Source of the DNA: a virus
Taxonomy: Duplodnaviria; Caudoviricetes
Direction: 5' to 3' (one strand)
IMG/VR virus record: IMGVR_UViG_3300033121_001334
Coordinates: 1 to 64,000 of that record
DNA: 64,000 bases
Part shown: positions 4,002 to 20,391 of the stretch, piece after piece
How the letters are laid out: the number at the start of each line of letters is the position of its first letter
Position numbering within the stretch: position 1 is the stretch's first letter
The notes under the pieces: model-generated
Seen by the model: the letters and a program-made list of their open reading frames with translations, nothing else
What the model was told of the DNA's origin: nothing
The model's database searches: none
Made by a program: the position numbers and the translations under genes

Positions 4002-4040
4002 TGACCCCGCTGGGACTCGAACCCAGGACCAACGGATTAA
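4002..4040 (-). pseudogene. 3' half of a split tRNA-Lys
   Basis: TTAATCCGTTGGTCCTGGGTTCGAGTCCCAGCGGGGTCA: intact T arm; acceptor strand pairs with the 5' half at 4814-4847. Confidence 0.8.
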
Positions 4041-4249
4041 TGCAAAAGAAGAGCAGACAAGACGATATTGACGATGAATCCAACAAAAGCAACAATAACT
4101 GCTTGCTTGCCTCTCTTTCCTTTATTGCTCCAATCTATTGCTCCAAGTAAAAGAGCAACAAGAACGCAAACAGGAAAAATAAAGGTTCCTATTGCAAAAC
4201 CCATTGCAATCTGTCCCAAAATTGTTGGCCTGCTTTGCTGATTGTTCAT
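4037..4249 (-). CDS. small membrane protein (cassette cargo)
   Basis: 70 aa, two hydrophobic helices; its TAA stop lies in the anticodon loop of the tRNA 3' half. Confidence 0.7.
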   Translation of the reverse strand: MNNQQSRPTILGQIAMGFAIGTFIFPVCVLVALLLGAIDWSNKGKRGKQAVIVAFVGFIVNIVLSALLLH

Positions 4250-4686
4250 ATTTGCTCCAACCTTTCCTTCGTGAGAACAAAGTCATCGTGGAAGTTTAGT
4301 CCCTTGGTTTGACCGTTCCTGGTCTTCTCTTTCCTGACCGCCCAACTTCTTGTTCCTACAAAATGTTCTGGTTTGAGTAGGTACATATCCCCTGATTCAT
4401 GATCATAGCAGACAATCAAGTCACAGTCTTTTTCTGTGTATCCTTTGCTTGTGCCCTTATACCAATTAGTTGTTCTTAAGGAAAATTCTCTTGCGCCAGA
4501 AGAATTTATTCGTTCGCTCGATTTGACTTGAACTTTCTTGAGTTTGCCGTCTATTACGGCAACAAAGTCAAATGGCAGATTGTCGCTTAAGGGCGCAAGG
4601 ACCGGAATATCGAACTTCGCAAACTCCCCCATTACTATTAATTGAGCTTTTTCGCCTTTACCTTTTGGATTCATATACACCTCCAA
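4246..4686 (-). CDS. PD-(D/E)XK endonuclease (free-standing, homing-type)
   Basis: PFDFVAV...KKVQVKS motif, DCDLIVCY; lies within tRNA remnants. Confidence 0.8.
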   Translation of the reverse strand: MEVYMNPKGKGEKAQLIVMGEFAKFDIPVLAPLSDNLPFDFVAVIDGKLKKVQVKSSERINSSGAREFSLRTTNWYKGTSKGYTEKDCDLIVCYDHESGDMYLLKPEHFVGTRSWAVRKEKTRNGQTKGLNFHDDFVLTKERLEQI

Positions 4687-4730
4687 ACATCTATTTCGTA
4701 GGTGTATATAAAACTCCTTCTTTTATTGAA

Positions 4731-4803
4731 TGCCCCCTGCTGGATTCGAACCAGCGGCCACTCGCTTAAAAGGCGAATGCTCTAACCACTGAGCTAAGAG
4801 GGC
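4731..4803 (-). tRNA. tRNA-Lys(TTT)
   Basis: GCCCTCTTAGCTCAGTGGTTAGAGCATTCGCCTTTTAAGCGAGTGGCCGCTGGTTCGAATCCAGCAGGGGGCA; cloverleaf, no encoded CCA. Confidence 0.92.
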
Positions 4804-4813
4804 GATATTTTTC

Positions 4814-4847
4814 AAGTCCGACGCTCTACCAACTGAGCTACGGGATC
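4814..4847 (-). pseudogene. 5' half of a split tRNA (Lys-type)
   Basis: GATCCCGTAGCTCAGTTGGTAGAGCGTCGGACTT, ends in the anticodon loop. Confidence 0.8.
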
Positions 4848-4957
4848 GTACCATGACGAGAAGGGCAGGGGCGGCCTCTCGTAATCCTCAGACTATCCCC
4901 ATCAGCAGACTGAGGGATTTAACAGTCACCGTCATGGATTTTAGTTGTCAGGAAAGT

Positions 4958-5632
4958 TTAGTCCTGAGGCTTCTTATTCTTGGTATGCGGAGATTCTCTT
5001 TCTTCCACCTTGCTAAAAGCCTCTTTTGTTTCCGGGCTAGTCTGCTGTCCCAAAATCTCAAGAGCCTCGATCACAGACATCCCGCTTTGCTCGTCCAACA
5101 TCTCCTCAATCTTCTCGTTATACATAATCGAAGAAGTATGAGCGGCCTCGGTATCTCCGGCGTTCCAGAGATCCATGATGATGCCTTCATGGGTCAAAAC
5201 AACAATCAGTGTACGGCCTTCTTCCTTGTCCTCGTACTCAACCCTCATGTCGTTGCCGACTCGAACGGGAACGTCGTCAACCTTGAAGGTGACGGGCGCA
5301 TGAGAGCGAGGGTCATTGCTTTCTTCCGTCAGGTCCGCAGCGGACTCAGGCTCGCCAGCGGTGTAGCGGCTGATTTGTTTCATTGCAGCCAAAAGTTGAG
5401 CCTTCGCCTCTTCTTCCTTTCGACCAGTCTTGATAAAAGAACCGGCGTACTTAAGAGCGTTGTAGATGCTTTGCAAATCGGCTTGAAGGGCAAGAATCTT
5501 GCCGTTCATAACCTTGCTAACGGCATTCATAACCGCATCTTGCTGGGAAAGAGAAAAGCCTTCTCCATTGCCCATGTCGTTGAGGCGACTGGCGGCGTCT
5601 TGGAGAATCTCTTGGGCAAGGTTGTTGTTCAT
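4958..5632 (-). CDS. hypothetical protein
   Basis: 224 aa; its TAA stop is the TAA of a motif copy. Confidence 0.75.
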   Translation of the reverse strand: MNNNLAQEILQDAASRLNDMGNGEGFSLSQQDAVMNAVSKVMNGKILALQADLQSIYNALKYAGSFIKTGRKEEEAKAQLLAAMKQISRYTAGEPESAADLTEESNDPRSHAPVTFKVDDVPVRVGNDMRVEYEDKEEGRTLIVVLTHEGIIMDLWNAGDTEAAHTSSIMYNEKIEEMLDEQSGMSVIEALEILGQQTSPETKEAFSKVEERESPHTKNKKPQD

Positions 5633-5670
5633 GCTCTTTCCTTCGGCGCGGAAAGTTTAGTTACGGCTTC

Positions 5671-6036
5671 TTAAGACTTCCATTCCCAAGCAATCAGGAA
5701 CCAGCCAGAAGGAGCCAACTTGTTCGCCTCGTCTTCGTTCTGACCAAGCCAATGATTAAAAGAAGTTTCAGTCAAATCAAAGGACTTATCCTTCTCAAAC
5801 TCAGGGTCAATCTCGAACTCAACCTTGCGCTCGACCCAGGTATGGTCAGAAAGAGCCAAGCCAAGATCCACCTTGATTGTTGGCAGAACGCCGCAATCGC
5901 CGCAATGACCAGGACCAGGATTGTCATGGCAACGGCAATGAGGGTCTGAGCAAGTAACCTCGCCCTTTGCAGGTTCAGCGGCGGGCGGCGTCGGCGTGGC
6001 GGACTCTTCAAGATTGACGGCGTTTGGGTTTCCCAT
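5671..6036 (-). CDS. hypothetical protein, Cys/His cluster (possible Zn binding)
   Basis: CSDPHCRCH...HCGDCG. Confidence 0.65.
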   Translation of the reverse strand: MGNPNAVNLEESATPTPPAAEPAKGEVTCSDPHCRCHDNPGPGHCGDCGVLPTIKVDLGLALSDHTWVERKVEFEIDPEFEKDKSFDLTETSFNHWLGQNEDEANKLAPSGWFLIAWEWKS

Positions 6037-6146
6037 AATGAATGGATTATAGCAGAAAGTTTAGTCCTTGATTTTGTGCCAATGAAAAAAGGACCGCCGC
6101 TATGCAGCGACGGCCCTTTCCTTCGGAGAAGTTGTCAGCAAGCCGA

Positions 6147-6671
6147 TTAGCGGCTGCCGGTGTTGCCAGCCTTGCTGCGCTGACGGGCGCGGATGGCCTC
6201 AGCCTCAGCGAGAATGCGCTGGTTGCGAGCGTTTTCCTGAATCTCCGCAGCGTTGCGAGCGTGATCGGAGATGATGTTGAGGCCGGTCTGAGCCGCCTGA
6301 CCAGCGGGACCGTCCTGAGCAACGCGACGCGCCAGAGCGTCGTTGATGCTCGCGCCCATGCGAACGAGATTGTCGGTGTCCTGGTTGTCGAGGCTGGCGG
6401 GGGTGACGAAACCCGAACCGTTGAACATCGACGAGGGCTTGTCGCTGGAGGTCGCCGTGCGAACCGCATCGCAATACGCCTGAGCGGAGGTCGCATTGGT
6501 GATGCGATTGCTCTCCGCCGCAGCGTGGTTGTTGCGGCTCTCGCGAGTCTTGGCCGGAGTATTGGCCGGAGCGGAAGTGTCGTTGCCGTTTGCGTTGCTC
6601 ATGTTTCTACTGCCTTCTGTTCGCCCCTTATTGGGGCTTTGGTTTGGGGGCCTACTAACATTTCGGCCCAA
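6147..6671 (-). CDS. hypothetical protein
   Basis: 174 aa (start may be MSNANG); GC hairpin + U tract follows at about 6085-6120. Confidence 0.65.
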   Translation of the reverse strand: MGRNVSRPPNQSPNKGRTEGSRNMSNANGNDTSAPANTPAKTRESRNNHAAAESNRITNATSAQAYCDAVRTATSSDKPSSMFNGSGFVTPASLDNQDTDNLVRMGASINDALARRVAQDGPAGQAAQTGLNIISDHARNAAEIQENARNQRILAEAEAIRARQRSKAGNTGSR

Positions 6672-6729
6672 CTGTTCCGACTCTCATTTTCTCCAAGAAA
6701 GTTTAGTTCTTGGAGGACGATGAACTACT

Positions 6730-6921
6730 TTACCCTATCCCCTCACTGTTGTCAAGCCTACGAAGACTCTTTTTTGTCTCTCTGCGCTCTTCCTTGACAG
6801 ACGGCTTGCCGCCAAAAGTCTTTGCCCTCGAACGACCAACCATCTTCTCCCTTTCCAGTTGGTTTTCCCTGGAAATCTTTCTGAGAGTTTTGACCAGTTC
6901 TTTTTTCTTGGGCTTTGCCAT
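6730..6921 (-). CDS. small basic protein
   Basis: 63 aa Lys/Arg-rich, motif copy upstream. Confidence 0.65.
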   Translation of the reverse strand: MAKPKKKELVKTLRKISRENQLEREKMVGRSRAKTFGGKPSVKEERRETKKSLRRLDNSEGIG

Positions 6922-7016
6922 GATATTTTTATTGCGCAGAAAGTTTAGTTCTTCAAAATAAAAGCCCCCTCTGCCTACGCCGACAGAAGGGGCAAACGTG
7001 GGTGACCCGAGATTGA

Positions 7017-7586
7017 TTAGGCGTTCTTCTTCGACTGGATCGCCGCCGCCTGAGCGAGAATCTCAGCCTCGCGCTGCTCGCGGAGAGCGTCGCGATGAGT
7101 CGTCAGGAAGTTGATGCAGTAGTTGAGGAAGTCGCCAGCCGTCTTGTCGCCAGCGGCCTCGCGCTTGGCGAGAATGTCGCCGATCAGCGTGACCATGTTG
7201 GCCGCGCCGTTGTTGGGAAGGCGAGTCGCAGGGCCGCTGTGGATGAAGCCGTCCGAGTTCCAATGCTGATCATAGCCCTTGCGGGGCGGATGAGCCTCGC
7301 ACTGCTCGTAGAACTCCTTGAGATACTGACGACCGCTATTGGCGTTGCTGGGGTCGATGCGGGTCTGCGTGGCGTTCTTCTTGATCCGCTTCGTCGCCTG
7401 AACCTCGATCGCTGCGACCGCAACCGCATGCGCCTCCGCAGCCTCGCCCTTCGGCTCGACCTCGACAGGAGCCGCAGCCTCCTTCGGAGCCTTCTTCTCA
7501 GCCTTCTTGGTCGCCTTCTTGTCCGCCGTCTTCGTTCCGCTCATTGCTGTTTCTCCGTTACTAAAACTTGGGTTGCTACTTCGCAA
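7017..7586 (-). CDS. hypothetical protein, Lys/Ala-rich N terminus
   Basis: 189 aa; terminator-like hairpin at about 6960-6995. Confidence 0.7.
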   Translation of the reverse strand: MRSSNPSFSNGETAMSGTKTADKKATKKAEKKAPKEAAAPVEVEPKGEAAEAHAVAVAAIEVQATKRIKKNATQTRIDPSNANSGRQYLKEFYEQCEAHPPRKGYDQHWNSDGFIHSGPATRLPNNGAANMVTLIGDILAKREAAGDKTAGDFLNYCINFLTTHRDALREQREAEILAQAAAIQSKKNA

Positions 7587-7695
7587 GCCCTATGACTTTC
7601 AGTTTACCTCCCAAAGTTTAGTCCCGCCTCCCCCTGCTCCCCTACCATACCGTAAACCCAGTAAAATCGCAAAATTGTGCACAACTTGTTGAAAA

Positions 7696-7728
7696 CAGAA
7701 CTCGACCCCGCAAAGGGTCGAGTTCTGT
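7696..7728. terminator. intrinsic terminator hairpin
   Basis: cagaactcgaccc-cgcaa-agggtcgagttctg inverted repeat downstream of 7754-8473. Confidence 0.7.
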
Positions 7729-7753
7729 TACTGTTCGGGTTGTCTGTTGTCGA

Positions 7754-8473
7754 TTAGCGGTTGCTGAACTTGGCGATGAACTCCATGAACGATTCAAAGC
7801 TCATCTCGCCAGATGCGTACAGATTCCAGGCCTTCGACAGGTCAAAAGAATCAACAACGCCGTCACCATCCAAATCCCCTGCGGTGATGATGTCGTAAGC
7901 GTCAGCATAGGCGGCGTCATAGCCTCCGTTGACGTTACGAACGACGGTGACAACACCAACCACCTTGTCGTCTTCGAGCCCGAGATTGTTGTTGTCGAAA
8001 AACACGCTCAGGCTGCCGTCGTCGTTGGCAAAGACAAAAGATCGAACTTGCTGCTGGCGAGGTTTGCCGTTCTCCATGTCGCGAATGTAAACCTCGATCA
8101 GGCTCGGATCAACAGGAGCGGTAAAGGCAATGTCGTAGGCAAAACCCGAACCTCGCTCCATGTTGGCATCGCGAGTCTGAGGCTGTCGAGGGTTGACGTT
8201 GTTGCCGACTCGACCAAGGCACCAGGTGAAAAAGTTGTTGGCCCCTTCGTAGCAAGCCTTGCGACGGTTGGCCTCATTGCTCTGCCGGTCGCAGTCAGCG
8301 AGGAGGCTTTGGAAGCATCCCCAACACTGACCAACATTCGGAGGATTGCCCAACTGCTCGCAAGGGTTGGCCTTGTTTTCGGCAACAGCGATACGCTGCT
8401 CAGCCTCCCCAAGCGCAGTGGCGCAAAAAACAACAAGAGCAAGAACGACGCACAGATAAACAAGACGGACCAT
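7754..8473 (-). CDS. secreted Cys-rich protein with C-terminal dockerin/EF-hand-like repeat
   Basis: N-terminal signal peptide, CWGC/C..C cluster, GDLDGDGVVDSFDL. Confidence 0.7.
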   Translation of the reverse strand: MVRLVYLCVVLALVVFCATALGEAEQRIAVAENKANPCEQLGNPPNVGQCWGCFQSLLADCDRQSNEANRRKACYEGANNFFTWCLGRVGNNVNPRQPQTRDANMERGSGFAYDIAFTAPVDPSLIEVYIRDMENGKPRQQQVRSFVFANDDGSLSVFFDNNNLGLEDDKVVGVVTVVRNVNGGYDAAYADAYDIITAGDLDGDGVVDSFDLSKAWNLYASGEMSFESFMEFIAKFSNR

Positions 8474-8775
8474 ATTGGAATCTCCAAATCAGTGTTCCTT
8501 GTTCGCCCCCATTGAGAGCATGGGAAAAAACGAACAAGTTGACTAGACAATTTTCAAAGAAAGTTTAGTTCAAAATGGATAAGTCCAATAATCAGCGGGT
8601 TGTTAAATGAAAATCGCCGCCAGAACTTCCCTTTCGGTGACCCTGACGGCGAAATCAGCAGAGAACCGTTTTAAGACCCCAGGTATACATTGAGTATACG
8701 GTTCAGTTCTTGCTCTACTAGAGGTTGGGTGCAGGTCTATCTTGCGATAGCCTCATACCAACATAGCTCTGCCGA

Positions 8776-8845
8776 AAACCCTTGGTAGGATTCGAACCTA
8801 CTGGACTCCGTATGAAACCGGAGCGCTCACCAGAGCAGCAAGGTT
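8776..8845 (-). pseudogene. atypical tRNA-like element (8-nt anticodon loop GTTTCATA)
   Basis: Good T arm GTAGG-TTCGAAT-CCTAC, stem CTCCG/CGGAG, 4-nt D loop, imperfect acceptor. Confidence 0.6.
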
Positions 8846-8919
8846 TAACCTTTTCCCAGGATGATCAGTCCCAGTACGCAAGGTTGGCCGTTATATTATA
8901 GAGGAGGCCAAACCTCTAA

Positions 8920-8995
8920 TAGCGGCTCCTGGATTCGAACCAGGGTTCTCGACGTTATGAGCGTCGCGAGATGGGCCAGACTTCTCCAAGCCGCA
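8920..8995 (-). tRNA. tRNA-Met(CAT), initiator-like
   Basis: TGCGGCTTGGAGAAGTCTGGCCCATCTCGCGACGCTCATAACGTCGAGAACCCTGGTTCGAATCCAGGAGCCGCTA; 1:72 mismatch and A11:U24. Confidence 0.85.
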
Positions 8996-9034
8996 ATCTG
9001 TACCTTTTGATTTATCGTCAAAAGTTTAGTTCTC

Positions 9035-9955
9035 AAACAGCCAAAGCTCCAATCCGGGACAGATTATCAAAACTAAGGCTGGTATTCGATCTCCCTTGCC
9101 TTTTTGTTCAATCGAGAAGGCAACTCTCTAGCTATATTTCAATAGCGCGCAAACAAAGACAAGTAAATAGTAAGCGGCAGAGGTTACTAGCCTCTGAACT
9201 TTCGTCCGTCCCAATGTTGTTATGCGACTCATCATAGAAACCCGCTTCGAATCAGGTCTCTCCGAGGCAGGGGTGGTTACCTGCAATCTCGCTCCCCTAG
9301 TCATATTATTTATGGCTAGTCGAGATCTTAGCGCCCCAACGGTTTTCCTATTGGCCTTTGCCGGATACCCGCCTTCCTTCTGCACTACACTGAAACGACT
9401 TACTCATACCTGAGTTACCAATGAACCCAGTACCTTATGCCTGGAGATAGGCATTAGATTTTCAGTCACCGCTTACTATTCACTTGTCAAAGACTTGAAA
9501 AGTCAGTGGCAAACTTTCATTTGCCAGCCGACCCTAGTAACTTTAGTTCCAAGAAGCACAAAGGCTGCTTGGTGGTCTTTTTCCCTGTCGCTAAAGTTTA
9601 TCCAACAAGGAAGCAAAGGCAGTCATAGTCTTAGGCTCTGGTCTCTTACCTCAAACTACCAGTGCTGCATCGCCTCAACATTGAATCATCTTACTGAAGG
9701 CGAACTTCAGATGATCCTTTAAAGCCGCTCTTTCTGCTTTCGCATCAGAGGGCTGCCAGGTCCGGCGTCCGTAGAGGCCGGCTGACCCGCCTTTTACCAA
9801 TCCTGTAGGTCGGCGGTTGACCCTCACAAAGACGCTGGAGAAAAGGGGGATTGTAAACCCGAAAGACCCAGCTATCTTTGCTAAAACTCAGTGCGGCGTT
9901 TACTCCGCACCTAGTTGCCCTTGCAAGCCTCGTCGTGGAGACCCAAGGGGCGTGG
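9035..9955 (-). ncRNA. Candidate large ornate ncRNA (about 920 nt; GOLLD/ROOL/MISL size class, family unassigned)
   Basis: No credible ORF; promoter at 9961-9989; at least 10 hairpins incl. GAAA and UUCG loops; 20-bp long-range helix 9158-9177/9469-9488. Confidence 0.65.
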
Positions 9956-9960
9956 ACCAT

Positions 9961-9989
9961 ATTGTAGCCGAAACTTTATTGACCGTCAA
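9961..9989 (-). promoter_or_regulatory. sigma70-type promoter TTGACG-N17-TACAAT
   Basis: -35 at 9984-9989, -10 at 9961-9966. Confidence 0.75.
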
Positions 9990-10017
9990 GTTTTCAAGTT
10001 TCGATTACAAGTGGTTC

Positions 10018-10194
10018 TCAAGCAGCCGTCGCAAGTTCTTTCTTCGTCGTTTTCAGCGCCTTCCACTTGCGACCCGTCTGCTCTTCCTTCTCTTTTCGGA
10101 GTTCTTTGGCTTGACCCTTGCCGAGATCACAACGGATTCCGCTCGCCAAAGGCTTTCCTTCTTCCACAACAATCCAAAAGCTATCGTCTTTCAT
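10018..10194 (-). CDS. hypothetical protein (start revised to MKDDS)
   Basis: 58 aa, start overlaps the end of the upstream ORF. Confidence 0.55.
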   Translation of the reverse strand: MKDDSFWIVVEEGKPLASGIRCDLGKGQAKELRKEKEEQTGRKWKALKTTKKELATAA

Positions 10195-10195
10195 G

Positions 10196-10381
10196 TTAGT
10201 TCTTCTTGGACTGGGACGCCTTGGCGATCTTCTCGTCAAGTTTTTCGATGCGCTTTTGAAGCGCCTTCTTTTTGCGCTCATAGCCCTTGATCTTATCTTC
10301 CTGCTTCTTCGCCGCCTTCAGCAACGACTGAAGCTCAGAAAGAGACAAGTCCGACAGTTGGTTTGTTTTTCCTTTGCTCAT
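10196..10381 (-). CDS. small coiled-coil protein resembling an H-NS oligomerisation domain
   Basis: LSDLSLSELQSLLKAAKKQEDK...; 61 aa from MSKGK. Confidence 0.5.
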   Translation of the reverse strand: MSKGKTNQLSDLSLSELQSLLKAAKKQEDKIKGYERKKKALQKRIEKLDEKIAKASQSKKN

Positions 10382-10406
10382 GGCCTTTCCCTTTTGTCCA
10401 AAAAGT

Positions 10407-10925
10407 TTAGTCCTCGTCCTCAATGTCGCTGCTGTCAAACGGAGAAACTTGGACAGTGTTACCAGTGGTAACAACATAGAAGAGGCCGTCTTCCCCTTCA
10501 GTGTAATCATCGCTCTTGATGAACTTCCTGGCAGCCTTCAACAAGCTGTCGTAGTCTTTATGAGACTTGCCAACAATTGATGGGTCAACACTTCCAAACA
10601 CATGCAAAAGATGAAATCGCTTTCCTGAACGAGTCTTCCGCTTCGCTTTTTCAAGCTTGCGTCCAGCTTCAAAGGCCATATCAATAGCCTTCTTAATGTT
10701 CCAGACGGCAATATCATGGAAGTCGAGTCTATCCATGTTGCGAGTCTCAAGCGTCTCAAGATTAAGAAGCTTGCGAATCTCTTCGGAAACGTTGTTCTTC
10801 GCAATCAATTCGGGCAGTTCCTTCTTGCCCTGCTCTCGAACCTTGTTGCACTTCACAGCTTCTTCGTCAGAGAGAGGGTGCTGTCGCACAATCCGCTCAA
10901 GGCGAGTTGTCTGAAAGTTGGTCAT
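10407..10925 (-). CDS. DUF6900-domain protein
   Basis: LNLETLETRNMDRLDFHDIAVWNIKKAIDMAFEAG signature. Confidence 0.75.
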   Translation of the reverse strand: MTNFQTTRLERIVRQHPLSDEEAVKCNKVREQGKKELPELIAKNNVSEEIRKLLNLETLETRNMDRLDFHDIAVWNIKKAIDMAFEAGRKLEKAKRKTRSGKRFHLLHVFGSVDPSIVGKSHKDYDSLLKAARKFIKSDDYTEGEDGLFYVVTTGNTVQVSPFDSSDIEDED

Positions 10926-11039
10926 AGCTTTTCGATTTGCGCGAAAAGTTTAGTTCAGAAATCAAAAGAAGGAGTTTTGAAGGGCTTTTTGTATTCCTGA
11001 AATAGCGGACTAACCGCTTAGATAACAGGAGTACAGGTA

Positions 11040-13351: not shown

Positions 13352-13384
13352 GCTTTTCTTTTTCCGCGAAAGTTTAGTTCCGAA

Positions 13385-13458
13385 TGGGCGACCTGGGACT
13401 CGAACCCAGAACCTCTTCTACGTCAAAGAAGCGCGCTGGCCAATTGCGCCAGTCGCCC
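13385..13458 (-). tRNA. tRNA-Val(GAC)
   Basis: GGGCGACTGGCGCAATTGGCCAGCGCGCTTCTTTGACGTAGAAGAGGTTCTGGGTTCGAGTCCCAGGTCGCCCA. Confidence 0.9.
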
Positions 13459-13708
13459 GTTTTGTATTGTCCCAAGCCTTTCTACTATAAACAACGTTTG
13501 TCATGCTTGAAATATCTTCAACAAGAATGGCATGGTCCGTTCTGTCTTTGAATCTATTGCAAATCACTTCAGTTATATCATTAACTGCCTTTACTGCCGC
13601 AGCATTAGTAAGGCTCAACCCTTTTATTTGTATCTCCAAAACTGGTTCTGGTCTCAATTCTCCTTGTTCAGGAGAATGATCCGTAATGGTTATTTTGCGG
13701 ATAGTCAT
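13418..13708 (-). CDS. hypothetical protein overlapping the 5' half of tRNA-Val(GAC)
   Basis: 96 aa from MTIRK, motif + SD upstream. Confidence 0.55.
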   Translation of the reverse strand: MTIRKITITDHSPEQGELRPEPVLEIQIKGLSLTNAAAVKAVNDITEVICNRFKDRTDHAILVEDISSMTNVVYSRKAWDNTKRATGAIGQRASLT

Positions 13709-13742
13709 GCTTTTCTTTTTCCGCGAAAAGTTTAGTTCTAAA

Positions 13743-13780
13743 TTGGAGCGACAGGAATCGAACCTGTCATCCTCTGTTTT
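13743..13780 (-). pseudogene. orphan tRNA 3' half (isotype undetermined)
   Basis: AAAACAGAGGATGACAGGTTCGATTCCTGTCGCTCCAA; intact T arm. Confidence 0.7.
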
Positions 13781-14318
13781 CTGAAACTGCTTTACAAAAA
13801 ACAATCAATTCATCATCAGAGTATCTGTTTTTGGCAAGGTTAGCCATAACTGATACAAACTGAACATTTCCTTTAACATATCCTAAAGAATTGTCTATTC
13901 TATCTAAACTTGCACCATTTATAGGTTGTTTACCAATCCAGCCGTTAGTGTTTTGAGGAAGAACAAGATCCCAACCTGTATAAGGACATTTGCCTTTTTG
14001 CTTTTCCCATAAAAAACGAATATATTCTAGGTCTATATCAACTTCTTTATTTGTTCTGGTTTTAGATACACTTCTTGTTTTTAGGACTGTTGAAAACCAT
14101 CGAAAAGGAGTTAATTCATCTCTTTGATTTCCAGATTCTTTTTTTATGTTTGGATTGCCCTTTCTTGGATTAGCCTTATTACCAATAAGGCAAGCACAAG
14201 ATCTAGAGCAACAATGTTTATATCCTCTTTTTTGCGCAAGGTTGTATTGAGAAATTGTTTTATGAAACCTTTTTCTACATTCTTGGTTTTCACATTCAAC
14301 TTCAATCAAGGTCTTCAT
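13767..14318 (-). CDS. HNH-family endonuclease
   Basis: GKCPYTG...SLDRIDNSLGYVKGNVQFVSVMANLAKN; ORF ends inside the tRNA 3' half. Confidence 0.85.
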   Translation of the reverse strand: MKTLIEVECENQECRKRFHKTISQYNLAQKRGYKHCCSRSCACLIGNKANPRKGNPNIKKESGNQRDELTPFRWFSTVLKTRSVSKTRTNKEVDIDLEYIRFLWEKQKGKCPYTGWDLVLPQNTNGWIGKQPINGASLDRIDNSLGYVKGNVQFVSVMANLAKNRYSDDELIVFCKAVSENRG

Positions 14319-14392
14319 GTTTATTCCGGGTTTTTGTGATAAGAGTTTACTAAATAAATAGTCTTATCGGCTAAACCCGAAAAATTATTCAA

Positions 14393-14464
14393 TCGGCCCT
14401 CCCGCGCTTGAATCGGGTTCTAACGATTATCAGTCGTTTGCTCTACCACATGAGCTAAGAGCCG
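14393..14464 (-). tRNA. tRNA-Ile(GAT), atypical T arm
   Basis: AACGA-CTGATAA-TCGTT; T arm CCCGA-TTCAAGC-GCGGG has an A53:G61 mismatch. Confidence 0.75.
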
Positions 14465-14478
14465 CTTTCTAACAAAAG

Positions 14479-14553
14479 GGTGATCGACGGGACTCGAACC
14501 CGCAATCCTCTGGATCACAACCAGATGCTTAAACCAATTAAGCTACGACCACC
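14479..14553 (-). tRNA. tRNA-His(GTG)
   Basis: G-1 and C73 present; TCTGG-TTGTGAT-CCAGA. Confidence 0.92.
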
Positions 14554-14675
14554 ATCAAGCTGCTAGAACTCCTTGATTTTACAAGTCAAAACTAGCGGGT
14601 ACTCATTTTTGAGCAGGTTTAGTCGCTACGCTTCTAAACATGCCTTGCAGGTTTAGCTAACCTGAGTTTTCCAAA

Positions 14676-14704
14676 TAGGCACAGCCGGACTCGAACCGAC
14701 AAGC
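14676..14704 (-). pseudogene. 3' remnant (T arm + acceptor strand) of split tRNA-Val
   Basis: GTCGG-TTCGAGT-CCGGC-TGTGCCT-A; pairs with GGGCGCA at 15411-15417. Confidence 0.7.
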
Positions 14705-14875
14705 TTACTTCTTTTCAAGTTCCTCAATACGTTTTTCAAGAGATTCAACATACTTCATAAGAGGTTCAAATGCTCTTGAAAGTCGGTTTAATCTGTCTCT
14801 TAGATTGCCACCAGAAGGAATCGCATTATCTGTTCTGGTTAGACTATCAATTTCTTTTTTAATATCAGAATTCAT
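14705..14875 (-). CDS. small coiled-coil protein (cassette cargo; start MNSDI)
   Basis: 56 aa, GGAGG SD just after tRNA-Val. Confidence 0.6.
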   Translation of the reverse strand: MNSDIKKEIDSLTRTDNAIPSGGNLRDRLNRLSRAFEPLMKYVESLEKRIEELEKK

Positions 14876-14886
14876 TTTTCCTCCAA

Positions 14887-14961
14887 TAGGCCCTCGGGGT
14901 GACGATCCCCGTACCTCTTCGGTGTAAACGAAGCGCTCTAGCCAGCGTGAGCTAAGGGCCT
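14887..14961 (-). tRNA. tRNA-Val(TAC), non-canonical T loop
   Basis: AGGCCCTTAGCTCACGCTGGCTAGAGCGCTTCGTTTACACCGAAGAGGTACGGGGATCGTCACCCCGAGGGCCTA. Confidence 0.8.
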
Positions 14962-15374
14962 GTATGTCGCTCCTGGTAGTGGAGCTTAGCATGGCAATTC
15001 CTGCAAAGAACCATGCATTTTTCTATCTCTTTCATAATGCGTTCTAGGCTCATGCCTTTACGAACCATTATGCTAACTTCAATTTCTTTTTCCTGCGGAT
15101 CTCTGTGATGAAAGTCAAGACAAGCAATATGTGATTCTCGACAAACTTCACAAGGATGATTTTTCCTGTAATCGTTTAGAAACTCCCTGTTTCTTTCAAT
15201 AATCTTTTTGCGCCAGATTTTTGCATCTTTTTTCTTTTGGGCTGCATTTTCTGGATTTTGATACCACTTCTTATTGTATTCGCTATGGTAAGCGAGTTTC
15301 TTTTCTCTTTCTTTTTGAGGCATAACAGGTTCTCCTGTTATACCTATTCGACTACTTCTTTTACACTCCTTCAA
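14952..15374 (-). CDS. HNH endonuclease
   Basis: CEVC...CLDFHHRDP...KCMVLCRNCHAKLH; last codons overlap the tRNA-Val 5' end. Confidence 0.88.
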   Translation of the reverse strand: MKECKRSSRIGITGEPVMPQKEREKKLAYHSEYNKKWYQNPENAAQKKKDAKIWRKKIIERNREFLNDYRKNHPCEVCRESHIACLDFHHRDPQEKEIEVSIMVRKGMSLERIMKEIEKCMVLCRNCHAKLHYQERHTGP

Positions 15375-15377
15375 TTT

Positions 15378-15417
15378 CCGTGTAAAGGTGGCACTCTAGC
15401 CATTGAGTTATGCGCCC
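15378..15417 (-). pseudogene. 5' half of split tRNA-Val(TAC)
   Basis: GGGCGCATAACTCAATGGCTAGAGTGCCACCTTTACACGG, truncated after the anticodon loop. Confidence 0.8.
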
Positions 15418-15429
15418 AAACCCTGAAGT

Positions 15430-15729
15430 TTAGTTCTGACCTTCCGGCTGAACTTCTTCAGTTTTCATTTCTTTCTGCTTCTTGATCTCTTCAGATCTTT
15501 CCTTGAACCATCGGCCAATATGGCCCTGCATTGCGTAAATGTGACCCTCGTTCTCGCTAAGTTCGCTTTCCTTGATGAACCTGGTAAGCTCAAGAGCAAG
15601 AGCCTTATTCAGGGTAATAGTGATGTTACCCTTCATATGCTCAGGGTTTGCTGCGTCAAAAGGCTGAAGAATGAACACAGGCTTCTGAAGCGGACGACGA
15701 TTTCTGACAGTTTTGGGGGAGTCGGACAT
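15430..15729 (-). CDS. hypothetical protein (start MSDSP)
   Basis: 99 aa; stop is the TAA of a motif copy. Confidence 0.65.
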   Translation of the reverse strand: MSDSPKTVRNRRPLQKPVFILQPFDAANPEHMKGNITITLNKALALELTRFIKESELSENEGHIYAMQGHIGRWFKERSEEIKKQKEMKTEEVQPEGQN

Positions 15730-15803
15730 GGATTTGCTCCAAGTGGTAAAAGTAAACACTCAAAAGATACATCGTACCTTTCTGCTTTCCACAATCAAGT
15801 CAA

Positions 15804-15875
15804 CGCGCCGTGGGAGGTTCGAACTCGCTTTTCCCGATTTGGAGGCGGGCGTCTTACCAATAGACGAATCGGCGC
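15804..15875 (-). tRNA. tRNA-Trp(CCA)-like, degenerate
   Basis: CCCGC-CTCCAAA-TCGGG; mismatches in the anticodon, T and acceptor stems. Confidence 0.55.
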
Positions 15876-15973
15876 AGTGTTACAAGCTATTCTGTTGTCA
15901 AAGAAAAAACCCCTCAAGTTTTTAGAAGGGATTTTTCCAAAAGCTTTGAAATAACTGATAAAGGAGTTCAGTT

Positions 15974-16432
15974 ATGTCAAAGTATCAGGAAATGACCCCA
16001 GAAGAAATCGAAGAATACAGAAGAAAACGTAGAGAATATTACCAGAATCTAACAAAAGAAGAAAAAGAAAGAAGAAGAATACAAAGAAGAGAAAGACGTA
16101 GAAAAAATGGAAAACCAGAAAAAGAATTAGAAGCTAATAGAAAATGGGCTGCCAAAAACAATATCAAGATTCAAAAGCAAGCTCAAGATTTGAAACAAAA
16201 ATGTGTAGAACTAAAAGGTGGAAAGTGTTTTGCTTGCAATAATTCTTTCCCGTCTTGTGTTTTTGATTTTCACCATAGAGATGTTAATCAAAAAGAAGAA
16301 CAATTATCGGTTTTGATCTACAAAGCTCACGGAGAAATGACTCAAGAACTATTATCTGAACTTCATAAATGTGATCTCCTTTGCTCAAACTGTCATAGAA
16401 TACATCACCATGTGAAACAAAAAACCCCTTGA
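15974..16432 (+). CDS. HNH endonuclease (antisense to tRNA array)
   Basis: GGKCFACNN...FDFHHRD...KCDLLCSNCHRIHH; AAGGAG SD. Confidence 0.88.
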   Translation: MSKYQEMTPEEIEEYRRKRREYYQNLTKEEKERRRIQRRERRRKNGKPEKELEANRKWAAKNNIKIQKQAQDLKQKCVELKGGKCFACNNSFPSCVFDFHHRDVNQKEEQLSVLIYKAHGEMTQELLSELHKCDLLCSNCHRIHHHVKQKTP

Positions 16433-16499
16433 ATAAACTCAAGGGGTTCCGCAGACCTGTGGACATACAGCAAGTAGTCAACAGTCGCTACCCCTTGAG
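16415..16499 (-). promoter_or_regulatory. attenuator: antiterminator 16490-16499/16438-16447 versus terminator 16438-16447/16424-16432 + U tract
   Basis: CTCAAGGGGT pairs with ACCCCTTGAG (10 bp); ACCCCTTGA-GTTTAT-TCAAGGGGT-TTTTT. Confidence 0.8.
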
Positions 16500-16543
16500 G
16501 TAATGACATGCCAAATCACCTGATGTACAACTATGCTGTTCAT
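16478..16543 (-). CDS. attenuator leader peptide MNSIVVHQVIWHVITSRGSDC
   Basis: 21 codons, GGAG SD; codons 4-14 are Ile x3, Val x4, His x2, Trp, Gln. Confidence 0.75.
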   Translation of the reverse strand: MNSIVVHQVIWHVITSRGSDC

Positions 16544-16576
16544 TTCAAAAATCTCCGCCCAACATTGGGCTACCCA

Positions 16577-16605
16577 ACTGTATCGGCTTTTTCCGCAAAA
16601 GTCAA
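16577..16605 (-). promoter_or_regulatory. sigma70-type promoter TTGACT-N17-TACAGT
   Basis: -35 at 16600-16605, -10 at 16577-16582. Confidence 0.7.
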
Positions 16606-16743
16606 CAATCTTTTCACGCTTTCTCTAGTTTCCTAAAATCCTTCATTTTCCGCTTACGGAAACTAGGCCATTTTGGGAAACTGCTAAATGCGATTAAGAC
16701 CCCGATTCTCACCCATAACGATTATGCTTCACAAATTCCTTCT

Positions 16744-17142
16744 TTATTGCGAAACTTTTCCGTAAATTTCTGCGCTTTCAATCGTGCCTGTTGGAATAGT
16801 AATCAAAGATCTAAAACTGGGCTCTTTGTTTCCAGCTTCAAACATTGAGTCAACTCCAATAGTAACAAATTCTTTTTTTTCGCCTATAAAAGCAACAAAA
16901 CCGGAAGTGCAAACCTTGCTTGGCCCGTCAGGAACTTCGCCAGGCTTGAGTACAGAATCCGGATCGAATACTGCGCCCTTCCAAATAACCTGAACTATAT
17001 TCCCAATTTCAGCCTTGGCAAAAAACTCTTCAGAGTTCATAAACTTCTCCTTTACTATCATGTCTATCGACAAGAGAGTATTACAAGGAGAAAATCCAGA
17101 ATCCTCTTCAGTTCTGACTATTGAATTTACGAATCGCGCCAA
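16744..17142 (-). CDS. hypothetical protein (start probably further downstream)
   Basis: ORF track; Sm/SH3-like beta-rich segment. Confidence 0.55.
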   Translation of the reverse strand: MARFVNSIVRTEEDSGFSPCNTLLSIDMIVKEKFMNSEEFFAKAEIGNIVQVIWKGAVFDPDSVLKPGEVPDGPSKVCTSGFVAFIGEKKEFVTIGVDSMFEAGNKEPSFRSLITIPTGTIESAEIYGKVSQ

Positions 17143-17524
17143 TCAGTGTAGCGACTTCGATTTTCCAAAGCTCAGGAAACCTGACATTCTCTGGCATCCA
17201 AACATCAAAATGAACGTCCAGAATAGACTTGATATTTGCTCTACCAGCAGGATTCAAGCTATGAACAACAACAATCTTACCATGATGCTGCGTCATGTCT
17301 TTCAAGTGACGAGCAACAAAACGACCGTCCTCATGATCGTCTTTGGTAACATGATAATGCTCTTCTTCGAGATCGTGATCCAAATAGATCACATCATACT
17401 CGTTCTTTTTCAACAAGTCGATTGCTTCTTGCGCAGTGATAGCAAAGTCAACAACGCAGCCAATAGCTTTCTGTTGAAAGACATCTCGCCTGCTCTTCAT
17501 GTCGTCAAGGAACAAGATCCTCAT
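17108..17524 (-). CDS. cyclic-phosphate-processing receiver-domain protein
   Basis: MRILFLDD...EAIDLL...DVIYLDHDL...VVVHSLNPAG pattern. Confidence 0.7.
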   Translation of the reverse strand: MRILFLDDMKSRRDVFQQKAIGCVVDFAITAQEAIDLLKKNEYDVIYLDHDLEEEHYHVTKDDHEDGRFVARHLKDMTQHHGKIVVVHSLNPAGRANIKSILDVHFDVWMPENVRFPELWKIEVATLIGAIRKFNSQN

Positions 17525-17528
17525 TGAA

Positions 17529-17617
17529 TGCGGCAGGCGGGCGATAAACCCGCTTGCCCCTTTAGATTGCGTTTTCAAAATGCAACCAGCGCCTACCAAA
17601 CGTACAGGGCCTGCCGC
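17529..17617 (-). pseudogene. tRNA-like cloverleaf (Ser TGA-like, non-canonical T loop)
   Basis: 7-bp acceptor GCGGCAG/CTGCCGC + A; T-like arm GCGGG-TTTATCG-CCCGC; loop TTTGAAA. Confidence 0.5.
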
Positions 17618-17665
17618 ACTTCATTATCGACCAACGCCGCCCTGCCTCTCTGCTGTTCAGAAAGT

Positions 17666-18859
17666 TTAGTTCTCCTCGTCGCCGCCCTCGTCGTCGTCGT
17701 TGCGGCGACCTTCGCTGGTCAGCGACCAGCCGCCATTGTCGTCTCGGTCAGCCAGGCCTTGAGCCTTGTAGTTCGACAGGTTCTTGCTCAGCTTCTCGCG
17801 AGTAAGCTCAGGGAATTCGACAAGAAGCCTGTCGTAGATACCGCCAAGGTCCAGCCGAGAATGAGTTGTGAGAATGTCTTTGACGCTGGGAAACAGTCTC
17901 AGCCTCTTGCCTCTTTGGGGCTTGGTCTGCTTTGCGGTCTTGATAGAGGGATGTCCTCCAAGCTCGGCAACTCGTTGGTCGAGGGCTGCGAACTTCTGAA
18001 AAGCAAGTTCAACGGCGATTTGCGCTGCCTTGGCCGCTTTCTTTGCAAGACCATACTCGGCAACGGCCTTCATCCGCTCTTCTTCAGCGAGCTTGAGAGA
18101 GGCGCTGTCTTTGCCCAAAAGAACGTCAAGGTCGATGAGGTCGTCGTCGTCAAGGTCGATTGGAAACGAAGGCTGCGGCTTCGCAACCGCAAGAATGGAA
18201 GCGGGAATGGCCGGCGCAGTGGGGCGAGAAGGTTGAGCGACGGTTGGAGGTGTCGGCGGAGGTGTCTGCGGCTTGAATGGCAAGGCTTCGGGGGTAGAAG
18301 GAGCCGTCAGAACCTCAAGGAGAGCGTCATGGGCTTCCCCAATAGGCAAGAGCTTGGCGTCGTCTTGCATGGGAACCTTGTTGATTTTCCCAATCGCTCT
18401 CATGCCGTCGCCGTGGTCCCTCCACTTGTTGGCGAGATTGAAGTTCTGCGTCCAACGCCTTTCTTGCCCGGCCCAAACGGCTTTCATCTTCGCGCTGAAG
18501 ATGACAAACTCGCCAGAGGGAGCGCCAGTCGGGACAATGCTCGTTGGGATAGACAGTCTCTCTCCGAGCGGCTTCCGAAAATCAACAGCAGACGGCATAT
18601 TCATTACCTCCGTGATGTCAAAGTCGCAACCGCTCTTCCAAAGATAGATATTGGAGAGCTTTTCTTCTTCGTCATGTCCGTGCTTGAAGGGCCGAACGAT
18701 GGCCCTTCCATTGCCCAAGACCTTCTTGAGAATGCCCCTATTGGGCTTCCCCCTTATGTCTTTGTTGATGAGCTTGATATTGCAGATTCGCCCGCTCTGT
18801 TGAGCAAGCTCAAGGAGCTTGAGGGCTTGAGCTTCTGAAATTCCTTGACGGCTTTCCAT
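17666..18859 (-). CDS. hypothetical protein, Pro-rich linker, coiled coil and C-terminal winged helix
   Basis: 397 aa; LDLGGIYDRL...LSKNLSNYKAQGLADRDDNGGWSLT. Confidence 0.7.
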   Translation of the reverse strand: MESRQGISEAQALKLLELAQQSGRICNIKLINKDIRGKPNRGILKKVLGNGRAIVRPFKHGHDEEEKLSNIYLWKSGCDFDITEVMNMPSAVDFRKPLGERLSIPTSIVPTGAPSGEFVIFSAKMKAVWAGQERRWTQNFNLANKWRDHGDGMRAIGKINKVPMQDDAKLLPIGEAHDALLEVLTAPSTPEALPFKPQTPPPTPPTVAQPSRPTAPAIPASILAVAKPQPSFPIDLDDDDLIDLDVLLGKDSASLKLAEEERMKAVAEYGLAKKAAKAAQIAVELAFQKFAALDQRVAELGGHPSIKTAKQTKPQRGKRLRLFPSVKDILTTHSRLDLGGIYDRLLVEFPELTREKLSKNLSNYKAQGLADRDDNGGWSLTSEGRRNDDDEGGDEEN

Positions 18860-18912
18860 AGTCTAGAAGTCTAGGCCGAAAGTTTAGTCTTGGGCTTTCT
18901 CCGAGTGCAAAA

Positions 18913-18963
18913 TGGCCCCGATGGGATTCGAACCCCTACGCCTTTTTACGGGCTACGGATTTT
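18913..18963 (-). pseudogene. 3' half of split tRNA-Leu
   Basis: AAAATCCGTAGCCCGTAAAAAGGCGTAGGGGTTCGAATCCCATCGGGGCCA; long variable arm; pairs with GGCCCTG at 20026-20032. Confidence 0.82.
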
Positions 18964-19423
18964 TCACATTTCTTCCTCTCCAAGTTGGAGTCAATGCGTG
19001 GCAGTTGCAACACAAAAGTTCTAGATTTTCTTTTCGGTTATCAGTTCTATCACCATTTTTGTGTTCAATTTCTAAAGGAGCGATCTCTCCTTGCCATTCT
19101 GTTATTTTACACTTTTCACATTGATGACCTCGTTCCGAAATCAAATGTGGTTTTAAAGAAGAAAGCTTATTGTATTCTGACCAGTCTTTTAATCTTTTCC
19201 CAACGTTCCAAGCACTACCAGTCCAATGAGAACAATCCAGATTTAGCCTCTGGAGTGTTTTTCTCATATTGTTGTAGTTGCCACCTGCAACTCTGAGATC
19301 AAGGGCCTTCAAAAGCTCTGCCATCGAGTTGACTTCTTTACACTTTTGAATAATTTGTTCATCGGTGTAGCTTCTGTATTTTCTTGCCATAATCCACCTC
19401 CATAGATGGATTACAATTGGCAA
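18953..19423 (-). CDS. HNH endonuclease
   Basis: CEKC...LEIEHKNGDRTDNRKENLELLCCNCH; ORF ends in the tRNA 3' half. Confidence 0.9.
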   Translation of the reverse strand: MPIVIHLWRWIMARKYRSYTDEQIIQKCKEVNSMAELLKALDLRVAGGNYNNMRKTLQRLNLDCSHWTGSAWNVGKRLKDWSEYNKLSSLKPHLISERGHQCEKCKITEWQGEIAPLEIEHKNGDRTDNRKENLELLCCNCHALTPTWRGRNVKNP

Positions 19424-19456
19424 TCGAATTATCCTTCTTCGTCTACCAATTCCTAA

Positions 19457-19775
19457 TGGACTGACCGGGACTTGAACCCGGATGGTGTTTGAATACCTGC
19501 GGATTTTCTTACCACTTCAGCTTTCGCCGACTGCCCTTTTCCATCAAGGTACTTGGGGTCTTACGTTTGTGGTCTGGACTGTACCTTCATCCGTTCTGCT
19601 TCTTACGAAGAGTTTTGGATGACCCAATTGCAGTCTCTACGGCTTCCTTTGTAGGTTTGCCTCGGAATTGGGATTTTACACCGTTTCCCGATACTCTGGG
19701 TTTCATTTACAAGATTACTCTTGTAACGCTCAAATTGTCTAAGTCCGCTGCGTCTGCCAATTTCGCCATCAGTCC
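19457..19775 (-). tRNA. tRNA-Leu(TAA) with group I intron
   Basis: Exons 19741-19775 and 19457-19507 join to GCGGA-CT-TAA-AA-TCCGC. Confidence 0.9.
19508..19740 (-). mobile_element. group I intron (233 nt, no ORF) between anticodon positions 34 and 35
   Basis: 5' AGACAATTTGAGC recalls the cyanobacterial/plastid trnL intron; R CCGTAGAGACTG; S AAGGTACAGTCC; terminal G. Confidence 0.9.
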
Positions 19776-19782
19776 AATTATT

Positions 19783-19983
19783 CTATTCTTTGCGCGAATA
19801 ATTTTGCACAGACAATTTATCTATTTGTTCTTGTTGAGATTTAATAATACTTAAGATTTTCAAAAAATCTCCAGCCATAACAAAAAAAGTATTATCTCCC
19901 TTAATAGGAAATTTTCCTCCTTTACCAGCTTTATCCATTCTTTCTTTAACGTTTTGAATAAGTTCCTCAATCTCGTTCTTCAT
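19783..19983 (-). CDS. hypothetical protein (cassette cargo)
   Basis: 66 aa, GAAAGGA SD. Confidence 0.65.
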   Translation of the reverse strand: MKNEIEELIQNVKERMDKAGKGGKFPIKGDNTFFVMAGDFLKILSIIKSQQEQIDKLSVQNYSRKE

Positions 19984-19993
19984 ATTTGTCCTT

Positions 19994-20389
19994 TCAAAAA
20001 GTCCGATGCGTCTGCCGTTCCGCCACAGGGCCGATAATCTGAGAAACAGTCATTTTGCGAACAGGTAAAATGTTGTGGTCCAAGAAGTGATTGAGGCAAT
20101 CTTCCACTTCGTCCAAGAAGCTATCGCAGGCGGCAATTCTGTTAGAGGGAAGATCTTCTCTCATTTCAAGAATCGTTCTGTAAATCGAAATCAAGTCAAT
20201 AACTTTGCATTCGATTTTAGATTCTCGCGCAAAAGTAAAAGCGTCCGAAATGAGATCCAAATCGGGCTTTCTTGCGGATTTCAATGATTGAAATGCAGAA
20301 AGAGCTTTTTCTTTGCGAAGCTCGTTCTGGTTTGGAGAGTGAATATCTACTTTAATAGAACGAAAATCAAGAGTATCAAGCATCGTCAT
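19994..20389 (-). CDS. hypothetical protein reading through the tRNA-Leu 5' half
   Basis: 131 aa; C terminus GPVAERQTHRTF is encoded by the tRNA remnant. Confidence 0.6.
   Translation of the reverse strand: MTMLDTLDFRSIKVDIHSPNQNELRKEKALSAFQSLKSARKPDLDLISDAFTFARESKIECKVIDLISIYRTILEMREDLPSNRIAACDSFLDEVEDCLNHFLDHNILPVRKMTVSQIIGPVAERQTHRTF
19999..20032 (-). pseudogene. 5' half of split tRNA-Leu
   Basis: GGCCCTGTGGCGGAACGGCAGACGCATCGGACTT. Confidence 0.82.
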
Positions 20390-20391
20390 AA

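Follow-up and report, generated by a model that had tools for sequence, protein, structure and literature searches.

Three tRNA genes are broken by inserts that carry a nuclease and a tRNA of the same anticodon

In the transfer RNA (tRNA) array of the viral contig IMGVR_UViG_3300033121_001334 we found three tRNA genes, for Lys(UUU), Val(UAC) and Leu(UAA), that are each broken into two parts by an insert of 675-1035 bp holding the gene of a homing-type nuclease, a small open reading frame (ORF) and a tRNA with the same anticodon as the broken gene. These inserts, which we call cassettes, are probably free-standing homing-endonuclease units that have inserted in their own target tRNA gene and that carry a replacement tRNA. 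The stretch analysed (the window) is the first 64 kb of this 74.5-kb contig, for which the CheckV completeness is about 15%; because of this value, and because syntenic relatives among the IMG/VR and ENA contigs measure 370, 494 and 506 kb, the window is a piece of a huge phage. It is present in public wastewater and river metagenome runs, and its genes lie on the minus strand from position 1 to about 32 kb.

An earlier note on this DNA had described the three loci as old tRNA halves flanking an endonuclease gene, a small ORF and a same-anticodon tRNA, and reading of the minus strand, ARAGORN and in silico joining of the halves all bear this out (Table 1). With long inserts allowed, ARAGORN rebuilds one tRNA from 4002-4847, with a 773-nt insert, and another from 18913-20032, with a 1035-nt insert; joined in silico, the Lys halves are called as tRNA-Lys(ttt) and the Leu halves as tRNA-Leu(taa), each with an acceptor stem pairing 7/7, as does that of the old tRNA-Val. 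The chance of such pairing is about (6/16)^7 = 0.001 per locus. The Lys and Leu genes are broken between anticodon positions 34 and 35, just as the note had it, and the Val gene at positions 40-46, in the 3' strand of the anticodon stem, with a loss of 6 nt.

Without such inserts ARAGORN lists 13 tRNAs at 4.7-21.1 kb, or 15 when introns are permitted. A scan for T arms returned exactly four orphan canonical ones, all on the minus strand, namely the Lys, Val and Leu remnants and a lone remnant at 13743-13767 (see below); for 5' halves, a D-arm regular expression was too noisy to detect them. Four 'split' calls by ARAGORN (14676-14961, 20664-21071, 8776-9566 and 14478-15518) were discarded because each fuses two real tRNAs. 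Between 22 and 74 kb, where the contig has no tRNAs, the program, again with long inserts allowed, found no split tRNA.

Table 1. Parts of the cassettes and related features of the window
Feature	Positions	Strand	Evidence
Old tRNA-Lys(UUU), 5' half, ending ...GGACTT at U34	4814-4847	-	direct reading, ARAGORN
Lys cassette, 773 bp, between U34 and U35	4041-4813	-	direct reading, ARAGORN
Inner tRNA-Lys(UUU), body unlike the old one	4731-4803	-	ARAGORN; Rfam tRNA model 74.2 bits
PD-(D/E)XK nuclease, I-Ssp6803I family	4246-4674	-	Pfam PDDEXK_5 E=1.2e-20
Cargo ORF, 70 amino acids (aa), hydrophobic, membrane; stop TAA inside old anticodon loop	4037-4249	-	ORF list, direct reading
Old tRNA-Lys, 3' part, U35 to discriminator, starting TTAATCC	4002-4040	-	direct reading, ARAGORN, T-arm scan
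Old tRNA-Val(UAC), 5' part, through anticodon loop	15378-15417	-	direct reading
Val cassette, 675 bp	14703-15377	-	joint 14702->15378 in cassette-free strains
HNH endonuclease, phrog_2255 type	14952-15323	-	PHROG E=4.8e-26
Inner tRNA-Val(UAC)	14887-14961	-	ARAGORN; Rfam tRNA model 46.5 bits
Cargo ORF, 56 aa, GGAGG ribosome-binding site 5' of it	14705-14875	-	direct reading
Old tRNA-Val, 3' part, T arm and acceptor	14676-14702	-	direct reading, T-arm scan
Old long-arm tRNA-Leu(UAA), 5' half, ending at U34	19999-20032	-	direct reading, ARAGORN
Leu cassette, 1035 bp, between U34 and A35	18964-19998	-	direct reading, ARAGORN
Cargo ORF, 66 aa	19783-19983	-	ORF list, direct reading; absent from L026 cassette
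Inner tRNA-Leu(UAA), ~233-nt intron at 34/35	19456-19776	-	ARAGORN, introns allowed
HNH endonuclease, HNH_3 / phrog_10822 type; stop within old 3' part	18953-19390	-	Pfam, PHROG
Old tRNA-Leu(UAA), 3' part, from A35	18913-18963	-	direct reading, ARAGORN, T-arm scan
Intact tRNA-Leu(GAG), empty site of an L033 cassette	20988-21071	-	comparison with L033
Intact short tRNA-Leu(UAA), empty site of another L033 cassette	20391-20466	-	comparison with L033
Endonuclease ORF (phrog_3322), 13767-14318, then lone tRNA 3' remnant, 13743-13767	13743-14318	-	PHROG, T-arm scan
Nuclease ORF	11040-11798	+	PHROG
HNH ORF	15974-16432	+	PHROG

The nucleases belong to three families and not to two, as had been thought: PDDEXK_5 at Lys, a phrog_2255-type HNH at Val and an HNH_3/phrog_10822-type HNH at Leu. 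A profile made from the Lys nuclease and two relatives matches PDB 2OST (E=3e-15), the entry for I-Ssp6803I, a homing enzyme encoded in the tRNA-fMet group I intron of Synechocystis. The enzymes are of known homing families (PDDEXK_5, HNH_3, HNH PHROGs), here found outside introns and inteins; the Lys and Val inserts are ribozyme-free, neither 4041-4813 nor 14703-15377 having an Intron_gpI match at E<=1.

The inner tRNAs had been described as intact, which holds for Lys, where a 10-nt spacer separates the gene from the old 5' half, and for Val; the inner tRNA-Leu is itself interrupted at 34/35 by the intron of about 233 nt. Old and inner tRNAs have identical 7-nt anticodon loops and differ in 2-4 of the 5 anticodon-stem pairs, or else in the presence of an intron. 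That such replacement would diversify the tRNAs against host anticodon nucleases, as had also been suggested, finds no support in these loops, because when unchanged they leave the usual recognition element unaltered; they do not exclude it either. All three window cassettes carry cargo, as claimed, with no credible Pfam or PHROG family for the cargo ORFs; the smallest cassettes, those of about 535 bp described below, hold a tRNA and a nuclease only, so cargo is optional.

The Val cassette is present or absent in near-identical strains

We compared positions 3900-21200 with contigs of four wastewater runs (X4, X5, X2 and X8) from three studies, comprising two RNA and two DNA libraries, the RNA-library data being assembled contigs only. 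In all four runs the sequence passes directly from 14702 to 15378, skipping 675 bp and showing six other letters instead, and the flanks of this joint have 0-5 differences per 0.5-2.5 kb. The cassette-free allele folds as a canonical 75-nt tRNA-Val(UAC). Because the joint is seen in DNA runs, it is a DNA polymorphism and not splicing. The HNH gene, the tRNA-Val and the small ORF are hence one 675-bp insertion, which replaced 6 bp of an intact tRNA gene. Nor are the filled arrangements assembly artefacts, since independent assemblies reproduce them; an independent DNA contig from run X2 covers the Leu cassette (18297-21200).

Within the Val cassette (14703-15377), a 10-nt direct repeat, AAAAGAAGTA, lies close to both ends.

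Filled and empty sites are reversed in a related contig

A second contig, IMGVR_UViG_3300033121_001548 (L026/L033), has 82-87% nucleotide identity with the window over most of 7.6-28 kb and shows the reverse situation at two of the window's intact genes. In it, tRNA-Leu(GAG) is split exactly between A35 and G36 by a 943-bp cassette of an HNH gene, a tRNA-Leu(GAG) and a 92-aa ORF, with one mismatch between the halves and the window's intact gene, and the short tRNA-Leu(UAA) is split by an HNH gene and a tRNA-Leu(UAA). Presence and absence of a cassette at the same locus is therefore seen both within near-identical strains, at Val in the four runs, and between window and L033, at these two Leu sites. 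Other split tRNAs of L033 are a Leu(CAA), a long-arm GAU tRNA and a Val(GAC), each enclosing an HNH gene and a same-anticodon tRNA and each with an acceptor stem pairing 7/7; the Leu(CAA) and Val(GAC) remnants are truncated.

In the window, the short tRNA-Leu(UAA) is one of three tRNAs of 74-76 nt at 20391-20642 (minus strand) with the Leu anticodons UAA, CAG and CAA and a short variable arm, which adjoin normal long-arm Leu tRNAs.

The GAU remnant of L033 is the partner of the lone 3' remnant that follows the phrog_3322 ORF in the window, and the inner tRNA(GAU) is also present in L033. A pattern search of the window for a 5' partner of 13743-13767 gave chance-level matches only, and we read 13743-14318 as a decayed cassette. 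Elsewhere in L033, a PDDEXK_5 gene (14041-14678) lies between tRNA-His and tRNA-Ile and is absent from the window (14393-14552); the tRNA-His genes of the two contigs have common ends and different interiors, and the region looks like a clean replacement without remnants.

The old Leu(UAA) site is occupied in the window and in L026 alike, by HNH genes that are 72% identical. The inner tRNA of the window's cassette has a long arm and an intron; in the L026 cassette it is short and intron-less, the small ORF is missing and the old 5' half is truncated. Two other introns align with the core of the one in the window's inner tRNA-Leu, which suggests that the latter is related to group I introns: one is the Rfam-positive group I intron at 11846-12061, the other interrupts a tRNA-Lys-like gene of another contig (L027). 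The intron of the inner tRNA-Leu has no Rfam score of its own, even when searched alone. Both this intron and that of the L027 gene lie at 34/35, the very position of the Lys and Leu(UAA) breaks.

The intron at 11846-12061 belongs to a tRNA, probably with anticodon CAU, within 11040-12085, where a 252-aa ORF with two HNH modules adjoins the intron-bearing tRNA on the opposite strand.

At Lys, the 370-506 kb relatives (L001/L002 and L039/L040) have the same split at the syntenic site, with another inner tRNA body. The cargo in L001 (3438-4028) is a 196-aa lipoprotein ORF with the lipobox LTNAGC, as against the 70-aa membrane ORF of the window, and both ORFs end on the TAA of the old Lys anticodon loop; these cargo proteins may be exclusion proteins. 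Between the Lys halves of the window and of L001 there are four double compensatory changes, three changes that keep a G-U pair and zero that break a pair, and the L001 halves have one anticodon base missing. Some contigs depart from the window exactly at 4814, a hint of another cassette allele at this site.

Anticodons match at every site, and two nuclease/tRNA pairings extend far beyond this phage

The anticodon of the inner tRNA equals that of the remnant at all 14 sites that we read, which belong to several phage lineages; the chance of this is <1e-9 even if a generous 1 in 5 is allowed per site. The sites are Lys, Val and Leu of the window; Leu(GAG), Leu(CAA), short Leu(UAA), old Leu(UAA), GAU and Val(GAC) of L033; Lys of L046, L050 and L055; Leu(UAA) of L136; and Cys of L123. 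A match above chance was the test set in advance, and together with the filled and empty Val alleles and the reverse arrangement at two Leu sites it upholds the central claim of the earlier note, that a mobile element destroys a tRNA gene and brings along a tRNA of the same anticodon.

Two of the pairings are conserved far beyond this phage, one between I-Ssp6803I-like PD-(D/E)XK nucleases and Lys(UUU) and one between a single HNH family and Leu(UAA). A tRNA-Lys(UUU) lies 12-75 nt upstream of the gene for a PDDEXK_5 relative in at least 28 of the 41 metagenome loci that have one, even where protein identity falls to 37%, and the pair is also kept in stop-codon-recoding phages. In L046, L050 and L055, with nucleases 37-38% identical, a cassette of about 535 bp without cargo, made up of tRNA-Lys and the nuclease, breaks tRNA-Lys(UUU) at 34/35. 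For the Leu-type HNH, a tRNA lies within 200 nt in 72 of 80 viral loci, at least 48 of them Leu(UAA) and at least 13 with an intron. In L136, a long-arm tRNA-Leu(UAA) is split at 34/35 by an inverted HNH gene and a short tRNA-Leu(UAA); the Cys(GCA) case of L123 has a weaker acceptor stem (5/7). What looked like half of a tRNA-Tyr in the recoded phages L003-L017 lies inside an ORF and is not counted.

A homing model and its alternatives

We propose that the nuclease would recognise a single kind of tRNA gene at the DNA level, with the anticodon stem-loop as a natural near-palindrome, and would cut this gene in a co-infecting phage that is free of the cassette; repair of the break from the cassette-bearing genome would then copy the cassette into the cut. 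The insertion would disrupt the target, shielding the carrier from its own nuclease, and the lost tRNA would be compensated by the same-anticodon tRNA inside the cassette. That inner tRNA could escape cutting through its different stems or, for Leu(UAA), because a group I intron would interrupt the cut site itself. Both remnants, each about 35 bp long, and their flanks might serve as homology arms for further spread, with the small ORFs as passengers in some copies. What we infer from the arrangements above is that the nuclease cleaves the intact tRNA gene, that the inner tRNA is resistant and functional, and that the cassette spreads on co-infection. Of the compensation by a resistant tRNA that the earlier note had proposed, the carried tRNA itself is present, and its resistance is our reading of the stem differences or of the intron at the break.

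The junctions are consistent with this course of events. The targets have lost 0, 1 or 6 nt, as might be expected of break repair, and the old Lys stems are mostly CGGA...TCCG, a palindrome that would be suited to a multimeric PD-(D/E)XK enzyme. Neither terminal inverted repeats, the longest inverted match between cassette ends being 3-6 nt, nor target duplications are present, and the cassettes are flanked by complementary tRNA halves and not by repeats, unlike an integrase-borne island. As had been noted before, no integrase is apparent: the 74.5-kb contig, about 15% of the genome, has no match to the tyrosine integrase family (PF00589), in a search that did not extend to the serine recombinase family. 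The architecture of a mobile group I intron is not seen either, as there is no ribozyme core around the nuclease ORF in the Lys and Val inserts, where the tRNA and the ORFs fill the space.

Some observations weigh against homing with a replacement tRNA. No syntenic Lys-site allele with an intact old tRNA was found, and one relative (G001) is without any tRNA there. The syntenic Val site of L033 holds an intact tRNA-Val(UAC) with a third body, and turnover must therefore be more complex than a single insertion. The intron-less inner tRNA-Leu(UAA) of L026 has an anticodon stem-loop that is nearly that of the old tRNA, so that resistance would imply a nuclease that is inactive or that recognises sequence beyond the stem-loop. 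Moreover, enzyme activity, target site and homing event are all inferred, and the model would still need a route for a first insertion without homology.

As to origin, the Lys and Leu(UAA) inserts might go back to mobile group I introns in the anticodon loop that lost their ribozyme and were rescued by an acquired tRNA, which would be compatible with homing of the present cassettes. The break at 34/35 is indeed the intron site, the nuclease family is that of the Synechocystis tRNA-fMet intron, and group I introns occur in tRNAs of the same array. We nevertheless find this unlikely, as 4041-4813 contains no ribozyme remnant, the Val, Leu(GAG), Leu(CAA), Val(GAC) and GAU sites are broken elsewhere in the tRNA, and the module of tRNA-Lys and nuclease is also common without any halves.

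It is distinctly improbable that tRNA genes are not targeted at all and that nuclease genes simply pile up in a dispensable, repetitive array, with the anticodon match arising from local, SegB-like tRNA duplication followed by decay. The array does hold many nuclease genes, some of them outside split tRNAs (11040-11798, 15974-16432 and 13767-14318), several remnants are decayed, and SegB generates tandem tRNA repeats (PMC13096335). Against this, the inner tRNA lies between the halves and arrived with the nuclease as a unit, its body is quite different from that of the old tRNA and so not that of a recent duplicate, each nuclease family keeps the same anticodon across phages at 30-40% protein identity, and the breaks are concentrated in the anticodon loop.

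Very improbable, finally, is the notion that the halves are alive, being transcribed, excised and joined into a working tRNA by the phage RtcB or by trans-splicing, with the insert acting like an intron. An RtcB gene is present in phage and relatives alike, not one nucleotide is missing from the window's Lys and Leu halves, the changes between window and L001 Lys halves all preserve pairing, and in L001, L050 and L055 the inner tRNA starts directly after U34, so that RNase P would release the 5' half at precisely this point; RNase P ends, however, are not joined by RtcB, and the pair-preserving changes can also be explained by homing into different intact alleles. Moreover, 6 nt are missing between the Val halves, some of them from the anticodon stem, L001 Lys is short of one anticodon base, and in L026 the Leu 5' half is cut short, as are the Leu(CAA) and Val(GAC) remnants. 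The Lys and Val inserts have no detectable ribozyme, and the enclosed same-anticodon tRNA makes the old one redundant.

Relation to known systems

It is known that homing nucleases encoded in phage tRNA clusters cut tRNA genes and bring tRNAs with them (PMC2330249, PMC13096335, PMC8421152). As in T4 SegB and intronless homing (PMC2330249; PMC13096335; review PMC3984707), we see a free-standing nuclease gene in a phage tRNA cluster whose presence varies between relatives; SegB cuts the tRNA genes of phages that are without it and spreads with neighbouring tRNA genes (PMC2330249; PMC13096335). At the same time, SegB is a GIY-YIG enzyme that is encoded between tRNA genes and recognises a T-loop common to many tRNAs, whereas the cassettes lie inside one tRNA gene, leave both of its halves, carry a tRNA of the same anticodon and have nuclease families that keep to one anticodon.

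The window's Leu(UAA) cassette resembles collaborative homing (cited in PMC3984707) in that its HNH gene adjoins a gene with an intron and the old gene is broken exactly at the intron site, and an intron at the cut site would by analogy give immunity. The cassette is unlike collaborative homing in that the whole intron-bearing gene is copied into the old gene instead of replacing it, and most of the other cassettes are intron-less. With I-Ssp6803I (PDB 2OST), the Lys nuclease shares its protein family and its target region, the tRNA anticodon loop; unlike I-Ssp6803I it has no surrounding intron, its target is tRNA-Lys(UUU), and a whole tRNA gene takes the rescuing role of the ribozyme.

In Aeh1 nrdA/mobE and in T4 gene 39/60 with mobA, a nuclease gene lies between two gene halves that both still give a working product. 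The same is true of 'fractured genes' with split inteins, where a nuclease gene between gene halves leaves a working product (PMC2677866). Unlike all of these, the tRNA halves around the cassettes decay and a full spare copy is carried.

Engineered cleave-and-rescue and home-and-rescue drives are synthetic Cas9 constructs in insects, in which a nuclease destroys a needed gene and is linked to a cut-proof copy of it. The cassettes are like these drives in logic and unlike them in being natural and phage-borne and in rescuing a tRNA. A wider proposal would make the cassettes natural cleave-and-rescue drives, with each nuclease lineage locked to one anticodon (PD-(D/E)XK to Lys-UUU, one HNH family to Leu-UAA), the resident tRNA gene destroyed and the phage made dependent on the carried tRNA, the conserved halves acting as portable homology arms for jumps between unrelated phages, and the cassettes being the chief cause of turnover in the tRNA arrays of huge phages; on this our judgement is evenly balanced.

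In the literature that we searched, which leaves most subscription journals outside, we found no paper on cassettes inside a tRNA gene with both halves and a same-anticodon replacement, nor on the two nuclease/anticodon pairings. To the two known ways in which a selfish nuclease gene can sit inside a useful gene without harm, self-splicing introns and inteins, the cassettes would add a third, which is to bring a spare copy. They would account for the nuclease genes, tRNA fragments and fast-changing tRNA bodies of phage tRNA arrays, and could be a source of nucleases whose targets in tRNA genes, about 20-30 bp long, can be predicted. They may also offer a natural model for the population behaviour of cleave-and-rescue, filled and empty alleles being already together in wastewater samples. 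For annotation, tRNA halves beside nucleases should be taken as footprints and not as noise.

Other features of the contig and its tRNA array

Megablast of 3000-23000 against cultured phage genomes gave no match, and a protein search against the same genomes returned only homologues of 29% identity, in Ackermannviridae. The plus-strand HNH ORF at 15974-16432 is missing in the strain of DNA run X2, where a joint connects 15923 to 16437. On the minus strand, about 950 nt at 9035-9989, 5' of tRNA-Met, are without a credible ORF and have no Rfam match; in a strain variant, 100 other letters stand in place of 9494-9718. A tRNA-like gene at 8776-8846 (minus strand) has an 8-nt anticodon loop (ttca) and scores 24.8 bits with the tRNA-Sec model, which is under the cut-off.

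The RtcB RNA ligase gene lies at 47253-48380 on the minus strand (PF01139, E=9e-108) and is kept in three relatives; it probably serves tRNA repair against host nucleases. The motif AACTAAACTT occurs at 25 minus-strand places in the window, just 5' of genes (e.g. 3994-4003 and 13729-13738), and at 13 places in L033, and is probably a phage promoter or an intergenic signal.

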